Assembly: GCF_900105015.1 (NCBI RefSeq)
Contig: NZ_FNLK01000013.1
Coordinates: forward strand, 1 to 20,964
Reading direction: 5' to 3'
Source of the DNA: Schaalia meyeri
Lineage (GTDB): Bacteria > Actinomycetota > Actinomycetes > Actinomycetales > Actinomycetaceae
Length of the DNA stretch: 20,964 bases
The notes beneath the pieces were generated by a model. It was not told the origin of the DNA and ran no database searches. It saw only the letters and a program-made list of their open reading frames with translations. Below, in pieces: positions 1 to 17,291 of the stretch (position 1 is its first letter; every line of letters begins with the position of its first letter). The translations under genes were made by a program, and so were the position numbers.

Positions 1-3205
<3,205 letters not shown>

Positions 3206-3769: not shown

Positions 3770-5263
3770 ATGATCGCTACCATTTTGAGCTCGATCTCCG
3801 ACGTCATGTACACGTACGTCCTGGTCGCGCTCCTGATTGCAGTCGGCCTGTACTTCTTTATTCGTACGCGCGCGCTCCCGCTGCGCATGTTCGGGGAAGC
3901 AGTGCGCGTCGTTACCGAACCTCCGCACGAGGAAGGCGAGGTTTCCTCCTTCCGCGCCCTGATGGTTTCCACGGCCTCGCGCGTGGGGGTCGGCAACATC
4001 GCCGGCGTCGCAACGGCTGTGTCGCTGGGCGGCGCAGGATCCGTGTTCTGGATGTGGGTCATCGCGACGCTGGGCGGCGCGTCGGCCTTCATTGAGTCCA
4101 CGCTGGCACAGATCTACAAGAAACGCGGTCCTCACCACTCCTACGGTGGTCCCGCCTACTACATTCACACGGCGCTCAAGTGGAACTGGTTGGCCACGCT
4201 GTTTGCGATCGTCCTGATTGTCACCTACATGGGCGGCTTCAACCTGCTCGCCTCGTTTAACGTTGCCGACGCGTTCGGGCAGTACAGCTGGGCCAACGAC
4301 TGGACGCCCCGGATCGTGGGTGGCATTCTCGCGATCCTGATGGCCGTATCGATCTTCGGTGGCACGCGTCGCCTCACGGATGTCACAGGCTTCCTCGTTC
4401 CGATCATGGCGATCATCTACCTGGGCGTTGGACTAATCGTCATCGCCCTGAACTACCGCAACATTCCCACCATGTTCGCGGCGATCTTCTCCGGCGCATT
4501 CGATTTTTACGCGATGTTTGGCGGTTTCGCCGGTTCCGCGATGATGTACGGCATCAAGCGTGGCCTGTACTCGAACGAGGCTGGCGTTGGTTCCGCCCCG
4601 AACGCCGCCGCCTCGGCGTCGGTGTCGCACCCCACGAAGCAGGGCCTCGTTCAGATGCTGTCGGTCTTCATCGACACGATGATCATCTGCACGTTTACCG
4701 CCTTCGTGGTTCTGTCATCCGGCGTCGGATCGGGCCACGGCGTGACAGGCGCTCCGCTGGTCAAGGACGCGATGGCGACGGTCCTGGGACAGCCCATCGC
4801 GCAGGTTTTTATTTCGGTCGCGCTCTTCCTCTTCGCGTTCACGACCCTGGTGGGCAACTTCTACTACGCCGAAGTCAACTTCCGCTTCCTGCTGCGCAAC
4901 ATCCACTTGAAACACTGGATGCTCACCGCGTTCCGCGCCGTGGCCGCCGTGCTCGTGTTCGCCGGGGCCCTGCTGAAGTTCGAGGTTGCATGGAGCCTGG
5001 GCGACATCCTGATGGGCCTCATGGCCCTCATCAACCTGCCGGTGATCGTCGTCCTGGGACGCCAGGCCATCGACTGCATGAACGACTATTCGGCTCAGCG
5101 AAGGGCCGGACTGGAGCCCCACTTCAGGGCCTCCTCAATCGGCCTGAATCCCGCCGAGCTTGACTTCTGGCGCGACGACGCCCCGGATACCGCCGATGCC
5201 TCGGTAACCGAAGCCGCCGACTCCTCGGAGGACGCCGACCGCGCCACCCCGGTACCCGTGTAA
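3770..5263 (+). CDS. Alanine/glycine:cation (Na+/H+) symporter, AGCS family, 497 aa
   Basis: The multi-pass hydrophobic protein carries the family-typical RGLYSNEAGVGSAPNAAASA motif and the N-terminal IATILSSISDVMYTYVLVALLIAVGLYFFIRTRALPLRMF segment. I prefer the ATG at 3770 (GGGAAG SD at 3761-3766) over the ORF-track GTG at 3734, which adds 12 non-conserved-looking residues. Stop is TAA at 5261-5263. Confidence 0.9.
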   Translation: MIATILSSISDVMYTYVLVALLIAVGLYFFIRTRALPLRMFGEAVRVVTEPPHEEGEVSSFRALMVSTASRVGVGNIAGVATAVSLGGAGSVFWMWVIATLGGASAFIESTLAQIYKKRGPHHSYGGPAYYIHTALKWNWLATLFAIVLIVTYMGGFNLLASFNVADAFGQYSWANDWTPRIVGGILAILMAVSIFGGTRRLTDVTGFLVPIMAIIYLGVGLIVIALNYRNIPTMFAAIFSGAFDFYAMFGGFAGSAMMYGIKRGLYSNEAGVGSAPNAAASASVSHPTKQGLVQMLSVFIDTMIICTFTAFVVLSSGVGSGHGVTGAPLVKDAMATVLGQPIAQVFISVALFLFAFTTLVGNFYYAEVNFRFLLRNIHLKHWMLTAFRAVAAVLVFAGALLKFEVAWSLGDILMGLMALINLPVIVVLGRQAIDCMNDYSAQRRAGLEPHFRASSIGLNPAELDFWRDDAPDTADASVTEAADSSEDADRATPVPV

Positions 5264-5336: not shown

Positions 5337-6935
5337 TCACTTTGTGGCCAGCAGCGCCTCCTCGGCCTCCTTGGTCCACAGCCCGTCCTTCATGGCGGCC
5401 GCGACCTGCGGGAACTGCTCGGGCAGCTCGGACAGCGGGGTCAAACCCAGGTCGTGCAGGGACGGGAAGACCATGATCTTGCCGCCCGACGTGCGGTTGA
5501 TAACCGCGTTGATGGCGTCACCAAAACCCGCCATGCCGGTGACCGCATACAGCGAGATCGACGTGTCGATGATGCCCTCCTCGATCTTGTGCAGCACCGT
5601 GCGCATATCGGAGACGTCGGAGCCGGAGGTGCCCAGCATAAAGATGCGGCGCGCGATAATGCCCTGCAGGTCGAAGTCCCCGAAGGTACCCGCAGGGATA
5701 CCGGCGAAGGCGTTGATGATTGCGCCGGGGGCCGCCAGGTCCACCGCGCCGGCGACCAGCGCCGGGACAGGCACCAGGCACGTGATGTGCGTGTATCCGT
5801 ATTCGAGGGGCGTCACGGAGGTGTTGATGATCTCCAGGGGCACACCCTCGCGTTCGGCGACCGGGCCGACGACGGCCTTCAGGCCCGCCAGGCGTTCATC
5901 CGACAGGTCCGTACCCACGACGCTGATGCCGGGAACGCCCGAGGTCACGGCGCGCATCGTGTGCATCTGCCCCATCGGGCCGGCGGCGCCCACGATGGCG
6001 ATCGTGTCGCCCGCGCGCAGGTCGCCCGTGGCGGGAACCCACGAGTAGCCCTCGGCCGGATCATCCCCAGTGGTGCCCACGAAGCGGATGAAGTCGTAGT
6101 GCACGCGGCCGATATCCAGCGACACCTTGCGCTCGATGCGGCGCCCGCCCAGCACCACGTTGAGGACGCCGCGCGAGGCCAGCAGCTGCGCGATCTTCTC
6201 AATCACATCGGCGCGAGCGCCGAAGTAGATGATGTCATCGAAGGAGCCCTGGACCGAGTGCGCCTCATCCTCGCTGACCCGGGTAAGCGACGCCGGGGCG
6301 TGTGCGCTCGTCAGCGCGTCAACGTCCCCCTCCCCCACGACCAACAGCGCGCCGCCGTCGGCCAGGTGATCGCGTTCCTTCCACGCGTAGGAGCCCTCGA
6401 CGGTCGCCCACGGCTCGATGAGGCCGACGGCCGCGGCGGAAGGGGTATCGGACACGTGAATCAGGAACTCCTCGCCGTCGGGAGCCACGACGCAGCGCTC
6501 GTCAACGACCGTGTACTCCTGCAGGGCGCCGTCGAAGTTATAGCCGAAAGCGCCGTTCGACTTCGCGGTGCGCAGGTGCTTCCAGTCGGCCTGGACCAGC
6601 AGGCGGTCGCCGACCTGAAAGTGCGTGACGGCGTTCCCGACCGCGACCACGCGGACGACGGGCTCGTGGCCGGGGACAGTCGGGGCGCTGCCCGGGTGGT
6701 AGTTCGGGATCTCGGCGAGGGCGGCGGGGTCGATCCCCGATACGACCTGGCTCTTGCGCGGGTGCTTGTCGAACTGGTGGAGCAGCTTCGTGTCCGAGAA
6801 ACAGATGCCGCACGCCTCGACCTTGAGCAGCAGCTGGTGGTCCGAAATGGGATCCACGGGCTTGTCGGAAACGAGGCGGAACTGGTCGGCCCCCGTAATC
6901 TGGATGGCGTACTGGGTGGAGGGAACCTGGGTCAT
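5337..6935 (-). CDS. Zn-dependent MDR-family dehydrogenase (sorbitol/galactitol-1-P dehydrogenase-like), atypically long at 532 aa
   Basis: Contains a GroES-like catalytic domain with EACGICFSD (catalytic Zn Cys), GHEPVVRVVAVG and GDRLLV. An intact dinucleotide-binding motif, IAIVGAAGPMG, does not appear until about residue 315. I prefer the ATG at 6935, which has a GAAGGAG SD at 6943-6949. The ORF-track start at 6950 is a GTG lying within that SD. Confidence 0.85.
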   Translation of the reverse strand: MTQVPSTQYAIQITGADQFRLVSDKPVDPISDHQLLLKVEACGICFSDTKLLHQFDKHPRKSQVVSGIDPAALAEIPNYHPGSAPTVPGHEPVVRVVAVGNAVTHFQVGDRLLVQADWKHLRTAKSNGAFGYNFDGALQEYTVVDERCVVAPDGEEFLIHVSDTPSAAAVGLIEPWATVEGSYAWKERDHLADGGALLVVGEGDVDALTSAHAPASLTRVSEDEAHSVQGSFDDIIYFGARADVIEKIAQLLASRGVLNVVLGGRRIERKVSLDIGRVHYDFIRFVGTTGDDPAEGYSWVPATGDLRAGDTIAIVGAAGPMGQMHTMRAVTSGVPGISVVGTDLSDERLAGLKAVVGPVAEREGVPLEIINTSVTPLEYGYTHITCLVPVPALVAGAVDLAAPGAIINAFAGIPAGTFGDFDLQGIIARRIFMLGTSGSDVSDMRTVLHKIEEGIIDTSISLYAVTGMAGFGDAINAVINRTSGGKIMVFPSLHDLGLTPLSELPEQFPQVAAAMKDGLWTKEAEEALLATK

Positions 6936-7019
6936 GACTGACTCCTTCACTGGGAAAGGGGACGGGTGGAAGGCGAGGCCGAGGCCCAGACCGCGAGATC
7001 GGGGGCCGGCCTCTTCCGT

Positions 7020-8042
7020 TCACGAGAGCATCACCTGGCCGCCCGTGACGGGCACGGCCTGACCTGTCTCGTAGACCTGCTCGACAATGTAGAAGATCGC
7101 GCGCAGAACGTCGATGCCCTGCGCGCCGCGACGCATGGGGACCTTCGCCTCATAGAACTCTTTCACGTCGGCGACCGTCTTCGCACCGGGAACCTTCCCG
7201 GAGTTCAGGTACTGGACGAAGAGCCCGCGATCGGGATCGGACCACAGCGGCCCATCGTAGAAGTTTCCGGGGCAAATTGCGTTGACCTTCACGCCGTGGG
7301 CCACCATCTCCAGGGCAAAGGACTGCACCAGTCCGATGCCGCCGAATTTGCTGCCCGCGTAGGCGGCGTTCTTGTTCGAACCGACCAGGCCGGACTTGGA
7401 GTTGATCTGAATGATATCGCTCATCCACTGCGGGGCGGTCGAGTGCTGGCGGGCCAGCAGCTGCCCCAGGTGCTTGGTGACCAGGAAGAACGCCACGTAG
7501 TTGATGTCCGTGGAGAGGCGGAACGCAGCAGCATCCTGTTCCAGGACGGAACCCGCGCGCACGATTCCGGCGTTCGAGACGACCAGGTCGAGGCCGCCCG
7601 TGACTGCCTCGATCTCACGGGCCATCGCGGCAACCGAGTCCTCGTCGGCGACGTTGACCGTGATCGGGTGGGCGACGCCCTCGCCGCCGAGTTCCTGCGC
7701 CTTTGCCGCGGCCCCTTCACCGTTGAGGTCGGCAATGAACACGAAGCACCCGGCGTTGACCAATCCCCGGGCGATCTCCGCGCCGAAGCCCTGAGCTCCA
7801 CCCGTCACCAGCGCGACACGGCCGTTGATGGCGCGCTCGCCGGTGCGCGTGGCGCGAACCTCGTAGGTTTCCTCACCGACGCGCACAACGACGGGCAGTT
7901 CCGTCTCCTTCAGGGGGGCAGCGGGCGCCTCGGCCAGCGGGGCATCGAAGGTGAGGGTCGGTTCCTCCCGCGAGGGGGCCACGATCACCGGGCGCCCCAG
8001 GGCCTTCAGGAAGAGCCCGCGAACCTCGGGAGCGTTACTCAT
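7020..8042 (-). CDS. SDR-family oxidoreductase, sorbitol-6-phosphate 2-dehydrogenase (SrlD/GutD)-like, 340 aa with ~75-aa N-terminal extension
   Basis: The residues from GRVALVTGGAQGFG onward align by eye with E. coli SrlD along the whole core. Matching segments include IIQINSKSGLVGS, YAGSKFGGIGL, FYEAKVPMRRG and the C-terminal VTGGQVMLS. No in-frame start exists nearer the Rossmann motif. Confidence 0.9.
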   Translation of the reverse strand: MSNAPEVRGLFLKALGRPVIVAPSREEPTLTFDAPLAEAPAAPLKETELPVVVRVGEETYEVRATRTGERAINGRVALVTGGAQGFGAEIARGLVNAGCFVFIADLNGEGAAAKAQELGGEGVAHPITVNVADEDSVAAMAREIEAVTGGLDLVVSNAGIVRAGSVLEQDAAAFRLSTDINYVAFFLVTKHLGQLLARQHSTAPQWMSDIIQINSKSGLVGSNKNAAYAGSKFGGIGLVQSFALEMVAHGVKVNAICPGNFYDGPLWSDPDRGLFVQYLNSGKVPGAKTVADVKEFYEAKVPMRRGAQGIDVLRAIFYIVEQVYETGQAVPVTGGQVMLS

Positions 8043-8069
8043 GTTTTCTCTCTTTCTGTGCGCGATTCG

Positions 8070-9389
8070 TCAGTTGATCGATGTGGCTCGGGAGGCGACC
8101 TTTGCGGCGTCCTCGCCGTCCGCGATCGCCCTGCCCAGGGGCGCGTACTGCGCGATGCGCTCCGCGAGCGCATCGGGGCTCAGGCGACCCGTCCGACCCA
8201 GCAGGTGCAGGGCCGGATCCAGTGAGGACAGGGCCTCGTGCGCGACCAGCGCCCAGGTGGCCTCGTTGAGGTCGGCGAACTCCTGGCGGCGCAGCTCTTC
8301 GCACGTGAAGCGCTGGCGCGGCTGGTTGATATCGACACCCGAAATTTCGAGCATGCCGTGTGCCAACGCCAGCGCGTGGATCCGCTGAAGCTGCTCGGGC
8401 GTGTTGCGCGGCGGCATGTAGGTGACCGCGCGCAGCCCAATGTCTTCCATGTCCGCAAAAAGTTCGTCCAAGAAGTCGTCCTCGAACTTCTCGGCCTTCT
8501 TGTCTCCCGTCGGAGAGGCGGACACGTCGCCCAGGTAGGCGTAGGTGGCGATGGCGCCGATCGAGTCGGCGAAGGACACGACCTCGGCGGACGTGGGCAG
8601 CTCGTCGGTGGGTTGGATGTAGATGCGGTCCAGGTAGTTGGCCTTGAGGACTCCCAGCAGGTCGTACATCAGGTGCGGGTTGTCCGCGTCGGACATTACG
8701 TGCGCCAGCGAGTCCGGGATCCGCACCCCCATCGAGTCCAGGCCCTGGACCAGGGAAGGGCCGCGCCCGAAGCCGCGGATGAGAGCCGAGGCCATGGCCG
8801 CCAGCAGGTGACGCTCCGTGATGCCGCCCCCATTTGCGTACTGGGAGATGCCCACCATGTCTAGGCGCGGGTCGAAGGGCTCCAGGCCCAGGTCGGCGAG
8901 GATCCTGTTCGCCCTCTGGGCCATGGCAAGGGTGCGTTCCAACCGGGCCGCCCGCTTCGGTGCCAGCCACTGCGCGACCTTCTCACGCATCGGCGCGGGC
9001 ACGCCCTGGACCGTCATGTAGGCGACCCCCACGGAATCCGGGTTGTTGAGCTTGCGGTCACCAAGGGGCGTGCCCTGGCCGAAGCGGACGCGAATCTCGA
9101 AGCCGGTGACGGATCCCATGCCCAGGATGCGGGTCGCCTCGCTCATCTCGGCGGCGGCGGCGATGGAGTCGTGGTCGACGGAGCCGACGACCTTCAGACC
9201 CGCGCGTCGGGCGAGCAGCGCGGCGTGCGTGGGCGTGTAGGGGCTGAACGAGAAGCACGTGTGGATGTGGTTGTTCGACTCGGGCACCCACGATGGAAAG
9301 TGCTCGCGATCCGCGGTGGCGCGCAGCGCCTCAATGCGCTGAGCTGGCGTTAAGGCGGGGTCGTTGGTGATGTCCATGGGTTCTTCCAT
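8070..9389 (-). CDS. PHP (polymerase/histidinol-phosphatase) superfamily metal-dependent phosphoesterase, ~439 aa
   Basis: N-terminal NNHIHTCFS (HxH) and GSVDHDS motifs are typical of PHP domains. The start is placed at the ATG at 9389 (MEEPMDITND...); the ATG at 9377 is an equally plausible alternative. The first 91 codons of the ORF-track entry (to 9662) overlap the upstream E1 gene and the hairpin region, are Pro/Arg-rich, and are rejected. Confidence 0.8.
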   Translation of the reverse strand: MEEPMDITNDPALTPAQRIEALRATADREHFPSWVPESNNHIHTCFSFSPYTPTHAALLARRAGLKVVGSVDHDSIAAAAEMSEATRILGMGSVTGFEIRVRFGQGTPLGDRKLNNPDSVGVAYMTVQGVPAPMREKVAQWLAPKRAARLERTLAMAQRANRILADLGLEPFDPRLDMVGISQYANGGGITERHLLAAMASALIRGFGRGPSLVQGLDSMGVRIPDSLAHVMSDADNPHLMYDLLGVLKANYLDRIYIQPTDELPTSAEVVSFADSIGAIATYAYLGDVSASPTGDKKAEKFEDDFLDELFADMEDIGLRAVTYMPPRNTPEQLQRIHALALAHGMLEISGVDINQPRQRFTCEELRRQEFADLNEATWALVAHEALSSLDPALHLLGRTGRLSPDALAERIAQYAPLGRAIADGEDAAKVASRATSIN

Positions 9390-9433
9390 CTCTTCGTTGG
9401 GTGGAGAAAAACGTTGGTCGATCGTGTGGGGGG

Positions 9434-9480
9434 GGCGAGGCCGGGGCACAGGTGAGGAGGAGGTTCGCCCCGGCCTCGCC
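9434..9480 (-). terminator. GC-rich hairpin, perfect 14-bp stem (second hairpin downstream of the E1 gene)
   Basis: GGCGAGGCCGGGGC (9434-9447) pairs with GCCCCGGCCTCGCC (9467-9480), with a 19-nt loop. There is no U-tract immediately after it on the minus strand; TTTTT lies ~20 nt further on. This is a tail-less hairpin, so its terminator activity is uncertain. Confidence 0.45.
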
Positions 9481-9510
9481 GGGCTCGCGTCAGGGGTGCG
9501 AGCCGGGAGT

Positions 9511-9544
9511 GGGGGCGGGCCGGAAAGGGGAACGGCCCGCCCCC
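9511..9544 (-). terminator. GC-rich hairpin, perfect 12-bp stem, 6 nt after the E1 stop codon
   Basis: GGGGGCGGGCCG (9511-9522) pairs with CGGCCCGCCCCC (9533-9544), with a 10-nt loop. The TGA of the E1 gene is at 9551-9553 on the minus strand. No U-tail is present. Confidence 0.5.
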
Positions 9545-9550
9545 AAGGCA

Positions 9551-12004
9551 TCACAGGCCGGCGCGGTTCAGGCGCGCGATCTCGGCCTCGGTCGCGTGCT
9601 TCGTGGTGGGCACGTGGCCGGGCAGCGGCAGGATACGCTCGTGGATCGCGTCGAGGATCCACGACACCTGTGGGAAGAAGAACGACTCAAGCTCGGGTCC
9701 GGGCGTGATGCCGTTGCGAGAGCCGACCACGGCGATGGGCGCATCCAGCGCGTCGAAGGCCAGGGTCTGCACGTTCGCGGCTACCGTGTTGAGGAAGGAC
9801 CCGCGCTCGACCGCGTCCGAGGTCAGGATGAGACGGCCGGTCTTCTTCACGGACGCGATCAGCTTGTCGTAGTTCAGCGGGGCGACGAAACGCAGATCGA
9901 TGACCTCCGCGCTCAGCCCGTACTTCTCGGCCAAGACGTCGGCGGCCTCGAGGGCCTTGTAGACGGTTGCACCGTAGGCCGCGATCGTGATGTCGCTGCC
10001 CTCGCGGCGGATCGCCGGCTCGCCCTCTTCGGTCTCGTAGTATCCCTCGGGAACACCGCCGGGCTCGAAGTCCTCGCCCTTGTCGTAGAGCTTCTGGGAT
10101 TCGAAGAAGACGACGGGGTCGGTGCCGGACAGCGCCAGGTTAAGCATGCCCTTGGCGTCGGTGGGCGTGGTCGGGAAGTAGACCTTGAGGCCGGGGATGT
10201 GGGCTGTCAGCGCGCTCCAGTCCTGGCTGTGTTGGGCGCCGTACTTCGCGCCCACGGAGACGCGCAGGACGAGGGGCATCTTGAGCAGTCCGGCGCTCAT
10301 GGACTGCCACTTGGCCATCTGATTGAAGACCTCGTCGCCGGCACGTCCCAGGAAGTCGCAGTACATGAGCTCGACAACCGCCCGCCCGCCGGCCATGGCG
10401 TAGCCCACGCCCGCCCCGACGATGGAGGCCTCGGCGATGGGCGAGTTGAAGAGGCGCCGGTAGGGCAGCGCCTCGGTCAGGCCGCGGTAGACCGCGAACG
10501 CACCGCCCCAGTCGCGGTTCTCCTCGCCCCAAGCCGCCATCGTCGGGTCGGTCTGGAAGCGGTGCAGCATCGCCTCGAAGAGGCCGTCACGGAACTGGTA
10601 CATGCGCATCTTGGAGACAGGCTTGCCGTTTTCGTCCACGCTCGTGCGTACCTTCTTGGCCAGGGCCTTCACGCGCGGGTTGTCCGCCAGGTCGATCTCG
10701 GGGGTGGCGTCGTCGAAGGACTCGACCTTCTCGTTGGAATACATGACGGAGTCGATGTAGCCGTCCGCGACGCGCGAGGTGGTCTGGTCGTCGATGGTAA
10801 GCTTCAGGACCTTGACCAGCTTGTCGGTCAGCGAGGCCGTGTAGCCGTCGATGTCGTCCTGCGTGGTCAGGCCGTTGGAGATGAGCAGCTCGGAGTACTC
10901 CTTGATGCAGTCCGCCTGCTCCCACAGGTCGACCTCTTCCTTCGTGCGGTACGACGAGGCATCGGACGGCGAGTGCCCGGAGAAGCGATAGGTGATGGTG
11001 TCCATGAGGACGGGGCCTCGCCCCTTCTCCAGGATCTTCTTCTTGCGGGTGGTCGCATCCGCGACGGCCAGCGGGTTGAGGCCGTCGACGCGCTCGGCGT
11101 GCATGGCCTCGGGGTTGAGGGCCGCGCCCACGCGGGCGAGGATCTCATAGCCCATGGTCTCGCCGTAGGTCTGTCCGCCCATGCCGTAGAAGTTGTTAAA
11201 GAAGTTGAACAGGATTGGCGGGTTGCCGCCGTCCTCCTCGCGCCACAGGGAGCGGAACTGATCCATCGACGCGAAGGTGAGGGCCTCCCACACGGGGCCG
11301 CAGGCCAGCGCGGCATCGCCGACGTTGGAGATGACGATGCCGGGCTTGCGGTTGATGCGCTTAAAGAGCGCTGCGCCGTTCGCGATGGGGGCGCTTCCGC
11401 CGACGATCGCGTTGTTCGGATAGGAACCGAACGGCAGGAAGAACGTGTGCATCGAGCCGCCCAGGCCGCGATTGAAACCGGACTTGCGGGCGAAGATTTC
11501 GGCCAGCGCGCCGAAGAGGATGAAGTTCTCCGTCAGGTCCTTCGTGTCCGAGTACCCGATTTTCTCCGCGTAGGACAGGGTCTCGCCGCCGAGGAAGCCC
11601 TTCATGATGTCCTCGAGATGGGCCTCGTCCATCTGGTGCATGGCCGAGTAGCACTTAGCCAGGATCTCGCCGTGGGAACGGTGGGAACCGAAGATGAAGT
11701 CCTCGGGGGACAGCACGAAGCTCTGGCCCACGTAGGCGCTCTCCTGGCCGATGCCCAGGTGGGCGGGGCCGCGGTGGTTGTACTCGACGCCCTCCCACGC
11801 GCCGGTCTTTTTGATCGAGTCGAGCATGGACTCGAAGGTGCGCACGACGATCATGTCGTGGAGCATCTGGACCATGCCGTCCTGGCCGTAGCGGGCGATC
11901 TCGGTGTCGCGGTCGAAGCTGTACTGGTTGACGGGAACGTCGGGGAACTGCACGTGTCCCGGGCGACGCACCGCGGCGGGGTCGATGATGAGAGACTTAG
12001 TCAT
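9551..12004 (-). CDS. Fused E1 alpha-beta component of a lipoamide-dependent (acetoin/pyruvate/2-oxoacid-type) dehydrogenase complex, TPP-dependent, 817 aa
   Basis: The N-terminal ~400 aa resemble E1 alpha. Motifs there are [34 protein letters not shown], the TPP-loop region [11 protein letters not shown]...FFNNFYGMG, and YRFSGHS. The C-terminal ~352 aa (from [14 protein letters not shown], nt ~10609 downwards) resemble E1 beta, i.e. a transketolase-like Pyr domain plus C-terminal domain. Motifs there are [34 protein letters not shown] and [10 protein letters not shown]. Confidence 0.9.
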
Positions 12005-12036
12005 TTCTTTCTACTCTTCCTAAACGTAGGGATTCG

Positions 12037-13404
12037 TCAGAGCTTGATGGCCCACGCGGCCTCGCGGATAACCTCGGAGACCGTGGGGTGCGGGAAGACC
12101 ACCTGGCGCAGGTCCTCGACGGTGAGTTCCATTTCGACGACGGCCTGCGCGCCCCAGATCATTTCGGCGGCGTACGCGCCAAGCACGTGGATGCCGAGGA
12201 CCTGGTGGGTGTCGGGGTCAACGAGGATCTTCGCCTCGCCGGGGGCCTTGAAGCCGTTCTCGGCGATGAAGCGACCGGACATGAGGGCGGGGACCTTGGC
12301 GACCAGGACGGGGCGCCCCTCGCGCTTGGCCACTGATTCGGTCAGGCCGACGCCAGCCGCCTCGGGGATCGAGAACACGGCCCACGGGACGGTGTGCCAG
12401 CGCATGACCTCGCCGCGCTTCTTGGCGTTCGGGTCCAGGATGTTTGCCGAGGCGATCTCCGCCATGCGGTAGGCGGCGTGGGCCAGCAGGGAACGGCCAG
12501 TGACGTCGCCGATGGCCCACACGTTCGGCAGGTTCGTGCGCATGCGATCATCCACGACGACGCCGCGGTTGATCTCGAGGCCACTCTCTTCGGCGCCCCA
12601 ACCGTCAGTCGCGGGACGGCGGCCGACGGCCATGAGAACCACGTCGGCCTCGATGCTCTTCTTTTCCTCACCCTTGGAGTAGTGGACGATTCCTCCATCC
12701 AGGGATTCGACCCGGCAGCCGAGCTCGAAGGTCACGTCCCTCATGGCGGCGCGGGCCCCCGCGGCCAGGTCGTCGTCCATGAAGGGCAGGATCTCGGGGG
12801 CCATTTCGATGACGGTCACCTTCGAGCCGAGCGTGGAGTACAGGGAGGCGAACTCGACGCCGATGACGCCGCCGCCGATGACCGCCAGGCGGGCGGGCAC
12901 CTCGGGCAGGGACAGGATGCCGGTGGAATCAACCAGCGCGGGATTGTCCTGCGTGCCGGGCAGCGGGGGCATGACCGGGACGGATCCAGTGGCGATGATG
13001 ACGTGGTCCGAGGTGTAGGTCGCGCCCTCCACGGTGACGCGGCCGGGGGCCTCGAGGTGGCCCCGGCCGTTGATGACCGTGACGCCCGCCTTGCGCTCGG
13101 TGGATGTCACCCCGGCGACCAGGCCGGAAACGACCTGGTCCTTCCAGGCCTGCATCTGCGCCCAGTTGACGGACACGCCCTGGGCGTCGACGCCGAACTG
13201 GCTGGCTTCCTTGGCGTGCAGGTAGTTCTTGGCGCCGTTGAGCAGGGTCTTCGTGGGGATGCAGCCCACGTTCAGGCAGGTGCCGCCCAGGTACTGTTCC
13301 TCGACCAGCGCGACCTTCTTGCCCGCGTGCCCCAGGCGCTCGGCGGCCAGGTAGCCCCCGGGGCCGGCCCCCAGGACGATGACGTCAAAGTGTGTCTCGC
13401 TCAT
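12037..13404 (-). CDS. lpd: Dihydrolipoyl dehydrogenase (E3), 455 aa
   Basis: Contains the FAD-binding motif DVIVLGAGPGGY and the redox-active disulfide motif GGTCLNVGCIPTK. It also has an NAD-binding motif (LAVIGGGVIGVEF) and a C-terminal interface domain with HPTVSE. An AAGAGGA SD lies upstream. Confidence 0.95.
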   Translation of the reverse strand: MSETHFDVIVLGAGPGGYLAAERLGHAGKKVALVEEQYLGGTCLNVGCIPTKTLLNGAKNYLHAKEASQFGVDAQGVSVNWAQMQAWKDQVVSGLVAGVTSTERKAGVTVINGRGHLEAPGRVTVEGATYTSDHVIIATGSVPVMPPLPGTQDNPALVDSTGILSLPEVPARLAVIGGGVIGVEFASLYSTLGSKVTVIEMAPEILPFMDDDLAAGARAAMRDVTFELGCRVESLDGGIVHYSKGEEKKSIEADVVLMAVGRRPATDGWGAEESGLEINRGVVVDDRMRTNLPNVWAIGDVTGRSLLAHAAYRMAEIASANILDPNAKKRGEVMRWHTVPWAVFSIPEAAGVGLTESVAKREGRPVLVAKVPALMSGRFIAENGFKAPGEAKILVDPDTHQVLGIHVLGAYAAEMIWGAQAVVEMELTVEDLRQVVFPHPTVSEVIREAAWAIKL

Positions 13405-13420
13405 GTGTGTTCCTCTTTCC

Positions 13421-14761
13421 TCAGGCCAGGACGGTCACGTCGATGTTCTCGATGGCGGCGACGAGGTCGCGCAGGAATCGCGCGCCGTCCGCGCCGTCGA
13501 TGACCTGGTGGTCGATCGTGAGCGACAGGTTAAGGCGCTGCTGGGCGCCGACGGTACCGTCGGGGGCGAAGGACGGGCGCGGGGTGATCGAGCCAACGCC
13601 GAGGATCGCCGTCTGGGGCAGGTTGATGACGGGCGTGAAGGTCTCGATCCCGAAGGAGCCGATGTTGGAGACCGTAAAGGTCCCGCCGCCCAGGTAGTCG
13701 GGCGACAGGGTGCCGTCGATGGCGCCGCCGGCCAGGCGCTTGGCCTCGTCGGAGAATGCCTTGAGGCCCAGCGACTGCGCGGAGCGGATGACGGGGACCA
13801 GGAGGCCGCGCGGGGTGTCGCATGCGAAACCGAGGTGCACCTGCTCGAACTGGGTGAGGACGCCGTCTTCGAGGTGGGCGTTGAAGACGGGGTACCTCGG
13901 CAGGGTGCGCGACACCGCGAAGCAAACCAGGTCGTTGAGGGTGATCTTGTTCAGCCCCAGGGCCTCGTCGGCGTTCTTGACCTTCTTGCGCAGGGCGAGG
14001 ATGCCGGCCGCGTTCGCCGTGGTGTTCAGGGTCAGCTGGGCGGTCGTGGTCAGGGACTCCATCATGCGCTTTGCGACGACCTTGCGCACGCCCCTCAGCG
14101 GCGAGGAGGTGGAAGCACCCGGGAAGTCGGCGGCCAAAGCGACAGCCGGGGCGGCGGGTGCAGCCGGGGCCTCGGGGGCGCGGTCCGCGTCGGCGACGCG
14201 CACGCGGCCTCCGATGCCGGTGCCTTCCGTGGCACTCACGCCGGCGACGCGCGCGGCGGAGGTGAGGACGGGACCCGAGGCGATCGCGGCGGCGACGTCG
14301 CGCTCAATGACGCGTCCATGGGGGCCGGATCCCTCGGTGATAGCAGAAGCGTCGATGCCGGCGCTGGCGGCGAGGGCGCGGGCTCGCGGGGAGACGGCGC
14401 CCGTGGCTCGCTCGGTTACAAACGCTGGGGCGGCCGTTTCGATGGGAGCGGCTTTGTTATCCTGCGGGGCCTGCTCGCAGGCGGAGGCGTCGCCTCCGGG
14501 AACCAGGCCGGAGATGTCCTCTCCGGGATCGCCGACGATGATGAGGGGATCCTTGACGGGGACCTCATCGCCTTCTTCCCACAGAAGCTTCAGGACGGTT
14601 CCCTCGGCGGTCGAGGGCACCTCCATCGTCGACTTGTCGGTCTCGATGGACGCGAGGGTCTGGTCGACGGCGACGGTGTCGCCCTCGGCGATCATCCACT
14701 CGACGATGATGCACGACTCAACAGAGTTGCCCAACTGGGGCATCACCACGATAGTGGCCAT
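13421..14761 (-). CDS. Dihydrolipoamide acyltransferase (E2) with one lipoyl domain, 446 aa
   Basis: The start MATIVVMPQLGNSVE follows a perfect AGGAGG SD (rc of ~14767-14773). The lipoyl-lysine motif is ASIETDKSTMEV. There is an Ala/Pro linker and a subunit-binding domain (VSPRARALAASAGIDASAITEGSGPHGRVIERDV). The catalytic motif is TIDHQVIDGADGARFL, where the canonical form is DHRxxDG (Gln here instead of Arg). The 68 upstream codons of the ORF-track entry overlap the DeoR gene and are rejected. Confidence 0.9.
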   Translation of the reverse strand: MATIVVMPQLGNSVESCIIVEWMIAEGDTVAVDQTLASIETDKSTMEVPSTAEGTVLKLLWEEGDEVPVKDPLIIVGDPGEDISGLVPGGDASACEQAPQDNKAAPIETAAPAFVTERATGAVSPRARALAASAGIDASAITEGSGPHGRVIERDVAAAIASGPVLTSAARVAGVSATEGTGIGGRVRVADADRAPEAPAAPAAPAVALAADFPGASTSSPLRGVRKVVAKRMMESLTTTAQLTLNTTANAAGILALRKKVKNADEALGLNKITLNDLVCFAVSRTLPRYPVFNAHLEDGVLTQFEQVHLGFACDTPRGLLVPVIRSAQSLGLKAFSDEAKRLAGGAIDGTLSPDYLGGGTFTVSNIGSFGIETFTPVINLPQTAILGVGSITPRPSFAPDGTVGAQQRLNLSLTIDHQVIDGADGARFLRDLVAAIENIDVTVLA

Positions 14762-14771
14762 GTGTTTCCTC

Positions 14772-15521
14772 CTAGACGATGCGCAGCTTCGTGCGCTCGG
14801 CCAATTCCTTGATGGATTCTTCGGGGATCTCATCGTCGGTGATGATTCCGGTGACCTGGTCGATCCCCATGAAGCTGACGAAGCCGGCTTCCCCGTACTT
14901 GGAGGAGTCGGCGAGCAGCCACGTCTCTTGTGCGCGGGTGCGCATGATGGAACCGACCTGTCCACCCTCCACGAGTTGGGTGGTCAGGCCGCGGTCAACG
15001 CTGAATCCGTCGGTTCCGAGGAACGCGACACGCGCGTTGAAGTCATTGATGGCGCGCTCGGCGACCGGCCCCACGAGGGATTCGGACTCGGCGCGGAAGT
15101 GCCCGCCCGTCAGCGTGATGTTGAGGTTCGGGTTGGAACGGGCGTTGGCGAACACCAGGACGGAGTTGGTCAAAACCTGGACTCCCCGCTTGCCGGTGAG
15201 GTACTTGACGATGAGGGCGCAGGTGGTGCCGGCCTCGATCATGATGCGATCGTCGTCGTGAATCATGTCGGCCGCGGCCCGCGCGATGCGCTCTTTCTGA
15301 TCGACGCGGTCGCTTTGACGCAGGTGAATGTTGCGGAACGTGGTGGGCCGGGCACCTCCGTGGGTGCGCACGAGGTATCCCTGCTCGTCGAGGGTTTTCA
15401 AGGAGGCGCGCACGGTGACGGGGGAAACGCCCAGGTCGGAGGCGAGCTGGGCGACGCTCACCTCACCCTCGCGGGCGAGGCGATCCAGGATGTAGTTCGT
15501 GCGTTCCTCTGCACGTCCCAT
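14772..15521 (-). CDS. DeoR/GlpR-family transcriptional regulator, 249 aa
   Basis: Contains an N-terminal wHTH (ILDRLAREGEVSVAQLASDLGVSPVTVRASLKTLDEQGYLVRTHGGA) and a DeoR C-terminal sugar-phosphate-binding-type domain. I prefer the ATG at 15521 (AAGAGG SD 6-7 nt upstream) over the GTG at 15536. Its TAG stop (14772-14774) lies inside the SD of the E2 gene. Confidence 0.9.
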   Translation of the reverse strand: MGRAEERTNYILDRLAREGEVSVAQLASDLGVSPVTVRASLKTLDEQGYLVRTHGGARPTTFRNIHLRQSDRVDQKERIARAAADMIHDDDRIMIEAGTTCALIVKYLTGKRGVQVLTNSVLVFANARSNPNLNITLTGGHFRAESESLVGPVAERAINDFNARVAFLGTDGFSVDRGLTTQLVEGGQVGSIMRTRAQETWLLADSSKYGEAGFVSFMGIDQVTGIITDDEIPEESIKELAERTKLRIV

Positions 15522-15577
15522 GGGACACCTCTTCACAGATGAGCGACATTCCCGTCACTTTGCCTTTCGTTAAGGAC

Positions 15578-15606
15578 AGAATAGTCACAAAAGCGAAAGT
15601 ATGCAA
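15578..15606 (-). promoter_or_regulatory. Candidate promoter of the deoR-E2-E3-E1 operon (TTGCAT - 17 nt - TATTCT)
   Basis: On the minus strand, TTGCAT occupies 15606-15601 and TATTCT occupies 15583-15578, with exactly 17 nt between them. It lies about 55 nt upstream of the DeoR ATG. It is flanked by an imperfect inverted repeat (15558-15569 and 15588-15599). Confidence 0.45.
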
Positions 15607-15712
15607 CATCACGTGCGGGGCAAATACCCGCGCGCATGCCGCGCGATAACGCCCGCACGCGCGCGCGTTACGGCGGCACACGATCGGCCGTCATGTCAGG
15701 AAAAACGCCGAT

Positions 15713-15738
15713 GCGGGCGGCCCGCAAAGGCCGCCCGC
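15713..15738 (-). terminator. Hairpin with downstream T-run in the fucU-deoR intergenic region
   Basis: GCGGGCGGCC (15713-15722) pairs with GGCCGCCCGC (15729-15738), with a 6-nt loop. On the minus strand it is followed by ATCGGCG and then TTTTT (15705-15701). Confidence 0.45.
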
Positions 15739-15784
15739 ACGACAGCTACGCTCCCCCCCCCTCGCGCCACTCGCGCGACACAAG

Positions 15785-15806
15785 CGAAACGAAAACGAAA
15801 CGAAAG
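15785..15806. repeat. Tandem pentamer-like repeat: CGAAA CGAAAA CGAAA CGAAAG
   Basis: Read directly from the sequence: four head-to-tail CGAAA(A/G) units. On the minus strand they read CTTTCG TTTCG TTTTCG TTTCG. Confidence 0.8.
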
Positions 15807-15818
15807 AACTGGTCACCA

Positions 15819-15854: not shown

Positions 15855-16283
15855 TTACTCCCCGGGCTGGCGCACCCCAACCGTCAGGAGCAGGTTGCCG
15901 TACAGACGCTGCTCGCCCGTCGCCACAATGATGCCCACTTCCTCGCTGCGCGCCGCGTCGTAGAAATCAAAGCGGGACAGCTCCCCGAACTCGACATCCG
16001 GCAGCGCCTCGCGGAACTCGCGGTGGATCGGGATATCCACCGTCTCCCCGTCGGCCGGGGTCATGATCTCCGCGCGCTCGATCGGGATCGTCCGCTTCAG
16101 CACCTCCAGGACCTGAAGGACATCCAGCATGCCCGGGGCCAGGTTTAAAGACACGAGCTCGCAGCGCGCTGAGACGCCCGTCGTGTGCGGATAGTTCGCA
16201 TCCGCCAGCAGAACCTTCGACCCGTGGCCGGCAGCCGCGAGTGCGCGCAGGAACTGGGGGTGAGTCATTGGACCGTACAGCAT
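15855..16283 (-). CDS. fucU: RbsD/FucU-family sugar mutarotase (L-fucose mutarotase-like), 142 aa
   Basis: Aligns by eye with E. coli FucU. Matching segments are the GHGSKVLLADANYP region (compare GHGDEIIFSDAHFP) and the C-terminal VATGEQRLYGNLLLTVGV (compare ITGERAKYGNILLKKGV). Confidence 0.85.
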   Translation of the reverse strand: MLYGPMTHPQFLRALAAAGHGSKVLLADANYPHTTGVSARCELVSLNLAPGMLDVLQVLEVLKRTIPIERAEIMTPADGETVDIPIHREFREALPDVEFGELSRFDFYDAARSEEVGIIVATGEQRLYGNLLLTVGVRQPGE

Positions 16284-16295
16284 GAACTTGCCTTT

Positions 16296-17291
16296 CTATA
16301 GGTGAGAGCTGGCCCGGATGACCAGCTCGGGATCGATGATGATGTCCTGGGAGGGGCCGCCAGCCATCAGAGAGCACACCAGGCGGACCGCCGTGCGCCC
16401 CAGGCGGTCAAAGGGCTGACGAATCGTGGTGAGCGGGGGCGCATAGGAATCGGCGCCGTCGATGTCATCGAAACCGACCACGCGCACGTCACGCGGCACC
16501 ACTCCCCCTCGCTCGTAGATGTAGCGCATCGCGCCCAGGGCCAGCTGGTCGTTCGCCGTCTGGATCCCCTCGGGCAGTCGGCCCGCCGCACGCATCACGT
16601 CGTAGCCGTCGCGCGAGTCCCACGAGTCGGGCTGCAGCACCACCGGGGTCACCCCGTAGCTCTCGCAGGCCTGTTCGTAGCCTCGCCTGCGCATCTGCGC
16701 GTCCGACCAGCCCATGGGCCCCGAGATATGAACGACGTCGGTCAGCCCCTGAGCGAGGAGATGCTCGGTGGCCAAAGATGCCCCGCGCACGTTGTCCACC
16801 GCGACCGTCGAAATGCCGTCCAGCCCCTTCTCGCTGGTTAGCACGAGCACGGTCGGAAAGCGCCCCCCGGCTTCGAGCACGACGTCAATCGTCGGATCCT
16901 GGCCGCCCAGAATAATGACACCGTCCACGTCGAAGGGGGCGAAGTCGTTCCTCAAACGGCCGTCGGGTCCGTACGCGTAGGACAGGGACACGTGGTAGCC
17001 CGCCTGCGCGGAAGCGTTGAGGATCGACAGGAGGACGCGCCCGTGCCCGTGGAACATGGGGGCGGCCAACACGACCTGCAACACGTCGGTGCGTTTCGCA
17101 GCCAGCGCGCGCGCCGCGTAGTTGGGCACGTATCCCAGCTCTTCGACGAGTTTAGCGATGCGAGCACGCGTCTTTTCGGAAACCTCCGGGTCGCCGCGCA
17201 CGACGCGCGACACCGTATTGGTTGACACGCCGGCCTGCCGCGCGATGTCGGCCAGCGAGACCTTCTTAGGCGCGGGGCGGGACGTGGACAT
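16296..17291 (-). CDS. LacI/GalR-family transcriptional regulator, 331 aa
   Basis: Contains the N-terminal HTH VSLADIARQAGVSTNTVSRVVRG and the hinge YVPNYAARALA, followed by a periplasmic-binding-protein-like sugar-binding core. Start is the ATG at 17291. The 39 upstream codons in the ORF track lie inside the kinase gene. The gene overlaps the 3' end of the kinase gene by 26 nt. Confidence 0.9.
   Translation of the reverse strand: MSTSRPAPKKVSLADIARQAGVSTNTVSRVVRGDPEVSEKTRARIAKLVEELGYVPNYAARALAAKRTDVLQVVLAAPMFHGHGRVLLSILNASAQAGYHVSLSYAYGPDGRLRNDFAPFDVDGVIILGGQDPTIDVVLEAGGRFPTVLVLTSEKGLDGISTVAVDNVRGASLATEHLLAQGLTDVVHISGPMGWSDAQMRRRGYEQACESYGVTPVVLQPDSWDSRDGYDVMRAAGRLPEGIQTANDQLALGAMRYIYERGGVVPRDVRVVGFDDIDGADSYAPPLTTIRQPFDRLGRTAVRLVCSLMAGGPSQDIIIDPELVIRASSHL

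Follow-up and report, generated by a model that had tools for sequence, protein, structure and literature searches.

The 20,964-nucleotide (nt) contig NZ_FNLK01000013.1 of Schaalia meyeri, referred to here as the window, carries seven consecutive minus-strand genes that encode a DeoR-family regulator, the E2, E3, and E1 components of a lipoamide-dependent dehydrogenase complex, a PHP-fold protein, and two dehydrogenases of the short-chain (SDR) and medium-chain (MDR) dehydrogenase/reductase types. An original prediction, made from the sequence of the window, held that these genes form an uncharacterised sugar-linked cleavage system dependent on thiamine pyrophosphate (TPP) and lipoamide. Following up this prediction with profile searches, structural modelling, and comparative genomics, we found that the cluster is real, non-random, and unexplained by any characterised system we encountered, and that it goes with genes for the use of L-fucose or L-rhamnose, which point to its probable substrate.

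Gene order and intergenic elements

Pfam, NCBIfam, and the NCBI gene calls confirmed the existence and positions of all seven genes. Genes in high-GC loci were called with a caller based on GC content at third codon positions (GC3). The unit opens with the DeoR gene (14772 to 15521; 249 amino acids [aa] from an ATG preceded by a GAAGAGG Shine-Dalgarno sequence, the longest open reading frame having a GTG start at 15536), whose product contains HTH_DeoR and DeoRC domains. It is followed by genes for the dihydrolipoyl acyltransferase E2 (13421 to 14761; 446 aa from the ATG at 14761), with lipoyl, E3-binding, and catalytic domains; the dihydrolipoyl dehydrogenase E3 (12037 to 13404; 455 aa); and a TPP-dependent E1 in which the alpha and beta parts are fused in one polypeptide (9551 to 12004; 817 aa) with E1_dh, Transket_pyr, and Transketolase_C domains. 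The second part of the string comprises the PHP-fold protein (8070 to 9389; 439 aa), which has no Pfam match and was assigned to its fold by AlphaFold2 modelling and Foldseek; an SrlD-like SDR (7020 to 8042; 340 aa) with an N-terminal extension of about 70 aa; and a long zinc-dependent MDR dehydrogenase (5337 to 6950; 537 aa), for which Pfam returned ADH_N only. The family assignments made originally for all seven proteins thus held up in the profile searches or, for the PHP protein, by fold.

The spacing of the genes is likewise as first described. Gaps of 10, 16, and 32 nt separate DeoR from E2, E2 from E3, and E3 from E1, and the DeoR TAG stop codon lies within the E2 Shine-Dalgarno sequence (tcTAGGAGGaaacacATG); the gaps after E1, PHP, and SDR measure 161, 27, and 69 nt. 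The 161-nt spacer between E1 and PHP (9390 to 9550, minus strand) contains three GC-rich hairpins and has a predicted folding energy of -85.4 kcal/mol (z = -6.2). No U tract follows these hairpins, and no U-tract terminator was called at 9390 to 9550; the spacer may act as a partial terminator or a stabiliser. The distance between E1 and PHP is 3 to 20 nt in many other loci, making the length of the spacer an unconserved, local feature. By NCBIfam profile, the DeoR protein resembles AgaR, GlpR, and SrlR, with all scores below the cut-offs. Its gene is the first of the unit in nearly all related loci, and we presume that it is a sugar-phosphate-responsive repressor of the E2-E3-E1-PHP-SDR-MDR unit.

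The original description of the string overlooked its upstream context, including the fucose link and the FucU gene. All genes from 20601 down to 5337 of the window are on the minus strand, and genes for an ATP-binding cassette (ABC) transporter, FucI, an FGGY kinase, a LacI-family regulator, and FucU lie directly upstream of the cluster. In an extended locus (L081; CP066065.1 of GCA_016127995.1) that is 99.98% identical to the window, the seven-gene string is the 3' part of a 14-gene co-directional array in the order ABC ATPase, permease, binding protein, FucI, FGGY kinase, LacI, FucU, DeoR, E2, E3, fused E1, PHP-like, SDR, and MDR. The L-fucose isomerase FucI (18838 to 20601; 587 aa) scores 1019.9 bits against the NF008220 cut-off of 775, and the rhamnulokinase-like FGGY kinase (17266 to 18675; 469 aa) scores 341 bits with TIGR02627, whose cut-off is 528. 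The LacI-family regulator (16296 to 17291; 331 aa) is followed by an RbsD/FucU-family mutarotase (15855 to 16283; 142 aa) with a weak NCBIfam match to L-fucose mutarotase and, in the NCBI gene call, the Pfam domain RbsD_FucU. This FucU gene, located between LacI and DeoR, is shared by 31 related loci.

Between FucU and DeoR, a hairpin with a 13-bp GC-rich stem and a T tract (15711 to 15740, minus strand) is terminator-like in sequence and probably ends the FucI-kinase-LacI-FucU unit; the DeoR promoter region lies downstream of it. A G9/C9 homopolymer just upstream of this hairpin (15711 to 15761 region) is the sole indel relative to CP066065.1 (9 versus 10 bases). Four tightly spaced TTTCG(T) direct repeats (about 15785 to 15810, minus strand), located between FucU and the hairpin, might be bound by a regulator or be simply a low-complexity stretch.

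Conservation of the cluster and its linkage to deoxyhexose genes

To place the cluster in a wider context, we scanned genomes with an alignment of the PHP-like protein and mapped the proteins of the window by tblastn, which yielded 80 loci, 76 of which had enough flanking sequence to be informative. The order DeoR-E2-E3-E1-PHP-SDR was observed in 75 of these 76 loci, and it is rearranged but present in the remaining one, that of Tessaracoccus oleiagri, where the two halves lie a few kilobases apart. Apart from T. oleiagri, E1 immediately precedes PHP, with DeoR, E2, and E3 before E1, wherever the upstream sequence suffices, and the SDR gene comes after PHP wherever sequence is available. The PHP and SDR genes are therefore syntenic with the complex in all 76 informative loci, and the E2-E3-E1 order, rightly pointed out as unusual in the original prediction, is a conserved property. 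Carriers, which come from the mouth, the gut, and the termite gut, include Actinomycetaceae, Propionibacteriaceae (Arachnia and Tessaracoccus), Treponemataceae and Spirochaetaceae, and metagenome-assembled genomes (MAGs) labelled as Oscillospiraceae and Lentisphaerales; because it is conserved in other phyla, the arrangement is non-random. A long MDR gene lies downstream of the SDR gene in 51 of the 80 genome loci. Spirochaetes carry a short form of the MDR (420 to 425 aa), mostly behind an extra FGGY kinase. Lipoylation genes (LplA, or LipA and LipB) accompany the cluster, and in eight Propionibacteriaceae loci it is adjoined by a TalC/FSA-family gene, which fits tetrose-4-phosphate or 1-deoxy-fructose-6-phosphate as a product or intermediate. 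A separate metagenome scan added 80 mostly termite-gut loci, 17 of which have at least 7 kb on both sides.

The genes around the cluster repeatedly concern 6-deoxyhexoses. FucI and the kinase are found beside it in Actinomycetaceae and in two Tessaracoccus loci, and FucU with a CUT2 transporter is found in the metagenomic spirochaete-type locus L090. Many termite-gut loci have RhaA, RhaM, and a second isomerase-like gene, and spirochaete loci have FucU. Some spirochaete loci hold together a transporter, FucU, DeoR, E2, E3, E1, PHP, SDR, an FGGY kinase, and MDR; no isomerase or aldolase was seen in view of these self-contained-looking loci. The upper part of the known FucIKA-FucO/AldA, RhaABD, and RhaEW pathways is thus represented by FucI, the FGGY kinase, FucU, and the ABC transporter, and the spirochaete versions have RhaA, RhaM, and a RhaE-like aldolase. 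In contrast to those pathways, the actinobacterial loci have neither a FucA/RhaD-type aldolase nor a lactaldehyde reductase or dehydrogenase, and have a lipoamide complex instead. No class II aldolase (Aldolase_II) gene lies within 10 kb on either side of the cluster, and among the 80 genome loci only one has such a gene nearby.

A published survey of gut microbial genomes is consistent with this pattern. Ravcheev and Thiele (PMC5583593) list FucI, FucK, FucU, and the ABC transporter for Actinomyces odontolyticus ATCC 17982 and for Actinomyces sp. HPA0247, the latter being one of our cluster-bearing loci (L003), and fuculose-1-phosphate aldolase (FucA) was not found genome-wide in two related Actinomyces genomes that carry the cluster. 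The FGGY kinase was named FucK in related Actinomyces on the basis of genome context (PMC5583593), and we presume it to be an L-fuculose 1-kinase.

The closest published parallel is found in Caldicellulosiruptor bescii, in which a row of genes comprises Athe_0697 (hypothetical), Athe_0698 (SrlD), Athe_0699 (SorE), LipB, LipA, Athe_0702 (E2), Athe_0703 (E3), Athe_0704 (a single E1), Athe_0705 (DeoR, named RhaR2), and Athe_0706 (RhaA) (PMC8579813, supplement). Athe_0698 is 51% identical to Escherichia coli SrlD, and Athe_0699 is an L-sorbose-1-phosphate reductase (PMC8579813). Compared by this published gene list, Athe_0698 to Athe_0706 shares with the S. meyeri cluster the E2-E3-E1 order with a single E1, a DeoR regulator, SDR and MDR neighbors, and an adjoining deoxyhexose isomerase; unlike the actinobacterial loci, C. 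bescii also has FucA and RhaD1. Athe_0697, upstream of SrlD, may or may not be a homologue of the PHP-like protein. Rodionov et al. (2021) assign the C. bescii complex to rhamnose use, describe it as a new dehydrogenase of three subunits with homology to acetoin dehydrogenase, and suggest, without experiment, that it disposes of lactaldehyde (PMC8579813). Our full-text literature searches found no experimental study of the system and only these two comparative-genomics papers that touch it; the system is already in print only as an unassigned predicted dehydrogenase.

Several further observations concern neighboring sugar genes. In some Caldicellulosiruptor species, FucR-regulated KbaY, GatD, AdhB, kinase, and GatZ genes are labelled as new fucose pathway enzymes (PMC8579813, supplement), and this second predicted fucose route, with its GatD-type MDR, could also pass via an intermediate like 1-deoxy-tagatose-6-phosphate. 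A 467- to 475-aa protein with no Pfam match is encoded beside RhaA and a CUT2 transporter in Treponema primitia (L087, 14875 to 16302), with homologues in loci L165, L168, L169, and L171; its weak similarity to the sulfoquinovose isomerase SftI and to L-arabinose isomerase makes this family a candidate new deoxyhexose isomerase. In one Actinomycetaceae MAG (L052), two extra minus-strand genes lie 2 to 4 kb past the cluster (14546 to 15505 and 15870 to 17840). One of these encodes a complete bifunctional RhaEW aldolase/SDR, and the product of the other looks, by eye, like a DhnA/LsrF-type class I aldolase. A conserved 271-aa HD-like protein follows the MDR gene in a few spirochaetes only.

Elsewhere in the window, ribosomal RNA (rRNA) genes occupy 1 to 3207 on the minus strand, with the first ~1233 positions of the 23S rRNA gene at 1 to 1267 and a complete 16S rRNA gene at 1666 to 3207; a 230-aa open reading frame inside the 23S gene (368 to 1060, plus strand) is spurious. 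A 509-aa membrane protein (3734 to 5263, plus strand), encoded convergently with the MDR gene in a position conserved in most Actinomycetaceae loci, looks, by its sequence, like an alanine/sodium symporter-type carrier.

Relationships of the encoded enzymes

Pfam and NCBIfam searches showed that an alpha/beta-type TPP-dependent E1, a lipoyl-bearing E2, and an E3 are encoded together. E3 passes the TIGR01350 equivalog threshold (463.6 versus 408.8). For E1 and E2, by contrast, every score with an NCBIfam pyruvate dehydrogenase (PDH) equivalog falls below its cut-off: 238.8 versus 321 for the beta part of E1, 171.8 versus 393.85 for the alpha part, and 261.4 versus 722 and 249.5 versus 445 for E2. 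The lipoyl-lysine motif of E2, IETDKST, is visible in its translation. A homologue search with E1 was filled by its near relatives. Searching plasmids by tblastn, we found fused E1 orthologues in Rhizobium, Agrobacterium, and Pleomorphomonas (R. johnstonii 3841 pRL8, L082; pAt15955, L083; and pSM30-1, L084), with 52% identity across 97% of the length. These plasmids carry a minimal version of the system. Genes for a sugar kinase (PfkB- or XylB-like), a SorC regulator, and two E2-like parts, namely a lipoyl protein of 78 aa and an alpha/beta-hydrolase matching AcoC in its C-terminal half, follow E1; the sets are adjoined by sugar ABC transporters, an RbsD/FucU protein, lipA, and a psicose-3-epimerase-like or mannitol-dehydrogenase-family gene. 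An AcoC-type E2 is peculiar to acetoin-cleaving systems, and the substrate of the alphaproteobacterial version is possibly a 1-deoxy-ketose.

In a neighbor-joining tree, for which the references were annotated sequences, not characterised enzymes, the fused E1 clade consists of an actinobacterial-spirochaete subclade and an alphaproteobacterial subclade (orthologues with 52 to 57% identity), each with 100% bootstrap support. Its sister group appears to be formed by aco-like, SorC-linked E1s (deep nodes at 54 to 59%), and Listeria PdhAB (30% identity) and branched-chain 2-oxoacid dehydrogenase (BCKDH; 29%) fall outside. The nearest unfused E1s (33 to 39% identity) also occur in sugar loci with SorC regulators. 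Because of this tree and the sub-cut-off PDH scores, we do not regard E1 as nested in the PDH or BCKDH clade; as judged from sequence, it appears to represent a lineage of Aco-type enzymes that is linked to sugar genes and uncharacterised. The two findings that the original prediction had named as refuting it, nesting of E1 and E2 within characterised acetoin dehydrogenase or PDH clades and loss of synteny between the complex and the PHP-SDR genes, were thus not observed, and its core idea of an uncharacterised, sugar-linked TPP/lipoamide cleavage system gains support at the sequence level.

The SDR appears to be a relative, not a member, of the sorbitol-6-phosphate 2-dehydrogenase (SrlD) family. 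It aligns with E. coli SrlD from end to end, including the VTGGQVM tail, at 36% identity and 153 bits; its NCBIfam score with SrlD (PRK12384) is 206.4 bits against a cut-off of 307, compared with 134 bits for RhaEW. Its core is ~60% identical across phyla with invariant TGGAQGFG, NSKSG, and YxxSK motifs, and the classical SDR catalytic Ser, Tyr, and Lys residues and the Gly-rich NAD motif are present. No phosphotransferase system (PTS) genes, including those of the glucitol PTS (srlAEB), were found in the window or related loci. A RhaW-type lactaldehyde dehydrogenase function for the SDR is disfavored: the match to the SDR domain of the L052 RhaEW protein reaches only 28% identity and 40 bits, compared with 153 bits for SrlD, and L052 has both proteins. 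The N-terminal extension ranges from 70 to 170 aa, and its only constant part is an aPLLRGL-type motif at the extreme N-terminus, where R8 and G9 are invariant; through this motif, the SDR may dock onto a partner protein. We also considered whether the extension is a remnant of the linker between RhaE and RhaW and rejected the idea, as there is no match upstream of profile position 409 and the extension is variable. The proposed role of the SDR, by analogy with SrlD, is that of a 1-deoxyhexitol-6-phosphate 2-dehydrogenase.

The MDR has weak NCBIfam matches to IolM and Tdh only, IolM being the best. A two-segment alignment with the short MDR of T. primitia showed that the long form corresponds to the short 420- to 425-aa form plus a degenerate Rossmann-like insert of ~110 aa; the insert, located at about residues 190 to 300, is absent from spirochaete homologues and accounts for the large size of the protein. 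CGIC...GHE motifs are visible in the translation, the zinc ligands being read from sequence alone. A conserved basic insert, KH(K/P)R, follows the zinc-binding Cys and may, speculatively, bind an anionic group. Assignment to the MDR superfamily is supported by ADH_N, whereas the closer placement among GatD/sorbitol dehydrogenase-type enzymes in the original prediction is not supported, the resemblance to GatD being only remote. From its sequence, the protein would be best described as a separate uncharacterised subfamily that is only remotely related to GatD and SorE.

The AlphaFold2 model of the PHP-like protein has a predicted local distance difference test (pLDDT) score of 92.9, and the top Foldseek matches are the TrpH/YciV-type PHP enzymes 3o0f, 2yb1, and 9etk (probability 1.0; TM-score ~0.7 normalised to the target). 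The Pfam PHP model gave no match, and the NCBIfam model of nucleoside-bisphosphate phosphatase, NF041577, reached 27.8 bits against a cut-off of 400, over the N-terminal 67 residues only. The canonical set of PHP metal ligands comprises nine residues (HxH, D/H, H, E, H, H, DxH). Alignment with E. coli RNase AM by hhalign revealed that six are retained (H41, H43, H73, E98, H194, and D353) and three are replaced (D by F48, H by Y285, and H by N355), replacements that are invariant in 41 family members. If the ligand scheme of YcdX applies, as we assume, these replacements abolish the third metal site and weaken the second. The protein thus shares the (beta/alpha)7 fold and two-thirds of the ligands with the TrpH/YciV (RNase AM) and Cv1693 phosphoesterases, and differs from them in ~150 extra residues, in the three invariant replacements, and in its partner, which is a polyol-phosphate dehydrogenase rather than a component of nucleotide or RNA metabolism. 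The earlier label of PHP phosphoesterase is therefore doubtful for the whole family.

The PHP gene always has the SDR gene next downstream, and an exhaustive family search (115 cluster representatives at E <= 1e-30) uncovered one representative, 48% identical, that is fused to a full-length mannitol-1-phosphate-5-dehydrogenase-like (MtlD-like) domain. Because of this natural fusion and the constant PHP-SDR adjacency, we connect the protein with hexitol-phosphate chemistry and place it at the hexitol- or ketose-phosphate level. Our favored role, a low-confidence guess, is that of a tetrose-phosphate or ketose-phosphate isomerase or epimerase; the alternative is a polyol-phosphate phosphatase, and fusions between MtlD and phosphatases are known. 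We lean toward the former because a phosphatase acting in the middle of the pathway would waste the ATP invested. We rejected the possibility that the PHP-like protein is the missing aldolase, as a RhaE-like aldolase gene lies directly beside the PHP gene in T. primitia and many metagenome loci. Fusions in the wider family (P0362, P0367, P0378, P0386, and P0418) have as partners the MtlD-like dehydrogenase, a GNAT protein, a methyltransferase, a pyridoxal phosphate (PLP) enzyme, and an LPG-synthase membrane domain. The non-MtlD fusions, found in members with 30 to 46% identity and heterogeneous in their partners, were not used as evidence, and such different partners suggest that the roles of the family are wider than this cluster.

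Proposed catabolic role and alternative explanations

The results presented above led us to a tentative proposal: the cluster may well encode the lower half of an aldolase-independent pathway of L-fucose catabolism (L-rhamnose in other lineages), in which an MDR/SDR redox flip is followed by Aco-type cleavage to acetyl-CoA and tetrose-4-phosphate. FucI passes its equivalog cut-off, and we take the conversion of L-fucose to L-fuculose as shown. The FGGY kinase would then form L-fuculose-1-phosphate, and the MDR, acting as a SorE-like ketose-1-phosphate reductase, would reduce its C2 keto group to give L-fucitol-1-phosphate, which is the same as 1-deoxy-D-galactitol-6-phosphate; titles in the literature equate L-fucitol with 1-deoxy-D-galactitol and L-rhamnitol with 1-deoxy-L-mannitol. 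The SrlD-like SDR would oxidise the penultimate carbon at the methyl end, producing a 1-deoxy-ketohexose-6-phosphate, which is a methyl alpha-hydroxyketone. In the cleavage step proposed for the fused E1, by analogy with Aco-type enzymes, TPP would add to the ketone and the C2-C3 bond would be broken to leave hydroxyethyl-TPP and release tetrose-4-phosphate. The hydroxyethyl group would pass oxidatively to lipoyl-E2, E2 would form acetyl-CoA, and E3 would regenerate lipoamide with NAD+. The net conversion would be fucose + ATP + CoA + NAD+ to acetyl-CoA + tetrose-4-phosphate + NADH, with neither lactaldehyde nor propanediol. DeoR would keep the unit repressed until one of the sugar-phosphate intermediates builds up; in isomerase-less loci, the aldose could be reduced to the alditol and then phosphorylated. 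Since C5 would become the ketone and C4 the aldehyde, the stereochemistry at both carbons would be lost, and fucose and rhamnose would yield one common tetrose phosphate, in keeping with the presence of FucI in some loci and RhaA in others. The PHP-like protein probably works alongside the SDR on sugar phosphates and may, as an isomerase or epimerase, convert the tetrose-4-phosphate (or a ketose phosphate) toward erythrose-4-phosphate.

The first half of this scheme has a biochemical precedent. In L-sorbose metabolism, SorE and SrlD/SorD convert L-sorbose-1-phosphate to fructose-6-phosphate via glucitol-6-phosphate, and the proposed MDR and SDR steps are the same two-step flip from a ketose-1-phosphate to a ketose-6-phosphate via a hexitol phosphate. 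An MDR and an SrlD-type SDR are likewise encoded side by side in the cluster, and in C. bescii true SorE and SrlD homologues adjoin E2-E3-E1-DeoR-RhaA. The cluster differs from the L-sorbose module in that the substrate would be 6-deoxy and would yield a methyl ketone instead of fructose-6-phosphate, in having no sorbose PTS, and in that its MDR is of a separate subfamily. The suggestion in the original prediction that the dehydrogenases make a deoxy-keto sugar phosphate thereby acquires a concrete precedent in the SorE/SrlD flip and the C. bescii gene set, weakened by the remoteness of the MDR. In outline, the scheme also resembles the Lsr pathway for autoinducer-2 (AI-2), in which an FGGY kinase (LsrK) phosphorylates a methyl-ketone sugar derivative that is then split, with LsrG and LsrF, into acetyl-CoA and a phosphorylated fragment; the Lsr pathway differs in using a class I aldolase-fold thiolase, no TPP or lipoamide, and another substrate. 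The presence of FGGY kinases raised the idea of AI-2 (DPD) or 1-deoxyxylulose as the substrate, and nothing specific supports it for the actinobacterial cluster. Such a substrate is possible for the alphaproteobacterial orthologues.

Several observations weigh against the proposed route. The stereochemistry would yield D-threose-4-phosphate or L-erythrose-4-phosphate from fucose, not the central metabolite D-erythrose-4-phosphate, so an extra epimerase or isomerase must be postulated, for which the PHP-like protein is the sole candidate. In the literature open to searching, we found no report of the proposed intermediates as natural metabolites. The ketose-1-phosphate C2 reductase role of the MDR is proposed by analogy only: the short MDR and E. 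coli GatD share 26% identity over 236 residues, the GatD model scores 30.7 bits against a cut-off of 550, and no MDR equivalog is reached. Deep nodes of the E1 tree, including the one that joins the aco-like sister group, have bootstrap values of 54 to 59%. Among the 17 termite-gut spirochaete loci with flanks of at least 7 kb, six contain E1E2E3 and seven contain a class II aldolase of the RhaE-like kind, for the most part together with RhaA; one locus has both the aldolase and E1E2E3. In T. primitia the aldolase, PHP, SDR, and MDR genes are consecutive, with no E1 within 10 kb. The PHP-SDR pair can thus go together with a conventional route through an aldolase, in which case E1E2E3 may act after the aldolase step; an arrangement in which the two routes are parallel branches is possible. 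LplA lies beside the MDR gene in two aldolase-bearing loci (L097 and L103), which hints, indirectly, at a lipoylated partner elsewhere in those genomes.

The main rival explanation draws support from such loci. An aldolase would split L-fuculose-1-phosphate or L-rhamnulose-1-phosphate into dihydroxyacetone phosphate and L-lactaldehyde; the Aco-like complex would then form an acyl-CoA, for example lactyl-CoA, by oxidising either this aldehyde or a three-carbon derivative that the SDR or MDR produces. The MDR, the SDR, or both would serve as lactaldehyde reductase or dehydrogenase. This role was proposed for E2-E3-E1 in the DeoR(RhaR2)-regulated rhamnose locus of C. bescii, an organism without a known lactaldehyde reductase and dehydrogenase (PMC8579813), and it is consistent with the many spirochaete loci, among them those of T. 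primitia, L097, and L158, in which RhaE-like Aldolase_II genes adjoin PHP-SDR-MDR, with the co-occurrence of aldolase and E1E2E3 in L158, and with the secondary match of the SDR to RhaEW, whose SDR domain is a lactaldehyde dehydrogenase. Nevertheless, we consider it unlikely. The locus itself lacks Aldolase_II, such genes are nearly absent near the other genome loci, and FucA is reported missing from cluster-bearing Actinomyces genomes (PMC5583593). The SDR is much nearer to SrlD than to RhaW, and it is not a replacement for RhaEW, as L052 has a full RhaEW in addition to the cluster. Moreover, the alphaproteobacterial E1 orthologues occur with kinases and without an aldolase in their loci, and the lactaldehyde reading leaves the PHP-like protein, whose fusion partner is a hexitol-phosphate dehydrogenase, without a role. 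We know of no characterised precedent for TPP/lipoamide oxidation of a free aldehyde.

The other explanations we considered dispense with a new substrate for E1 or change its chemistry. An ordinary PDH, turning sugar-derived pyruvate into acetyl-CoA and merely co-regulated with sugar genes, would explain why the E1 beta part and E2 match PDH models best in NCBIfam, why E3 is a bona fide dihydrolipoyl dehydrogenase, and why the complex is dispensable from the neighborhood in spirochaetes, as expected of a general enzyme; these anaerobes may also have no other PDH. We nevertheless judge it improbable, given that all E1 and E2 scores are far under the equivalog cut-offs, that Listeria PdhAB lies outside the fused E1 clade, and that the separate E1alpha-E1beta-E2-E3 genes of PdhABCD contrast with the fused E1 and conserved E2-E3-E1 order here, the latter headed by DeoR and tightly linked to PHP-SDR in three phyla. 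Alphaproteobacteria with the plasmid E1 orthologue presumably have a PDH of their own. Slightly less probable still is an oxidative transketolase-like reaction, in which E1 would attack a 2-ketose phosphate with CH2OH or CH2OP at C1 and release an aldose, leading to glycolyl-CoA, by analogy with the sulfo-transketolase route for sulfoquinovose. The homology of the E1 beta part to the Pyr and C domains of transketolase, the XylB-like kinases that adjoin the alphaproteobacterial orthologues, and the SftI/AraA-like isomerase of spirochaete loci fit this idea, yet the AcoC-type E2 partners point to an acetyl group, the SrlD-like SDR and MDR pair has no role, and both the fate of glycolyl-CoA and the 6-deoxyhexose link go unexplained. 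A genuine acetoin/2,3-butanediol dehydrogenase (AcoABCL), located by chance beside sugar genes, we regard as least probable. AcoABCL shares with the cluster an alpha/beta-type TPP-dependent E1, a lipoyl E2, and an E3; the closest recognisable relatives of E1 are aco-like, the closest characterised homologues listed for C. bescii are Aco proteins (PMC8579813), the alphaproteobacterial orthologues use AcoC-type lipoyl and alpha/beta-hydrolase E2 proteins, and the proposed reaction is likewise a non-decarboxylating split of a methyl alpha-hydroxyketone into acetyl-lipoamide and an aldehyde. However, identity to the aco-like E1s is just 33 to 39%, and butanediol dehydrogenase, AcoR, and AcoX are absent from the window, from L081, and from about 165 related loci, which have sugar genes instead. 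The cluster further departs from AcoABCL in its fused E1, its E2-E3-E1 order, and its constant linkage to DeoR or SorC regulators in place of AcoR; its partners are sugar kinases, deoxyhexose genes, the SrlD-like SDR, the MDR, and the PHP-fold protein, and its proposed substrate is a phosphorylated 1-deoxyketohexose.

Weighing these alternatives, we regard the mechanism advanced in the original prediction, now supplied with a substrate (L-fucose or L-rhamnose) and a biochemical precedent, as the best available explanation, held with a confidence somewhat short of even. The more specific picture is more doubtful, although still a serious possibility: an aldolase-free, propanediol-free route for both 6-deoxyhexoses via lipoamide-dependent cleavage of a 1-deoxy-ketohexose-6-phosphate, together with a PHP-fold protein that lacks the third metal site and was recruited as a non-hydrolytic isomerase or epimerase delivering erythrose-4-phosphate.

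Fucose and rhamnose are major host and plant sugars, found in mucin, human milk glycans, and pectin, and genome-based models of gut and oral bacteria have an acknowledged hole where FucI and FucK occur without FucA in Actinomyces and other taxa. If the proposed route is true, the cluster would fill this hole with new chemistry and provide the first sugar-phosphate substrate of a lipoamide complex of the 2-oxoacid/acetoin type. The predicted fermentation would shift from 1,2-propanediol to acetate via acetyl-CoA, with all six carbons used, and the route would explain why strict anaerobes such as termite-gut Treponema keep a lipoylated complex with its own lipoylation genes. It would also give functions to three large unannotated families (public data contain thousands of PHP-like proteins alone) and would suggest that 1-deoxy-ketose phosphates, and perhaps FSA/TalC-type aldolases as well, have a part in physiology.

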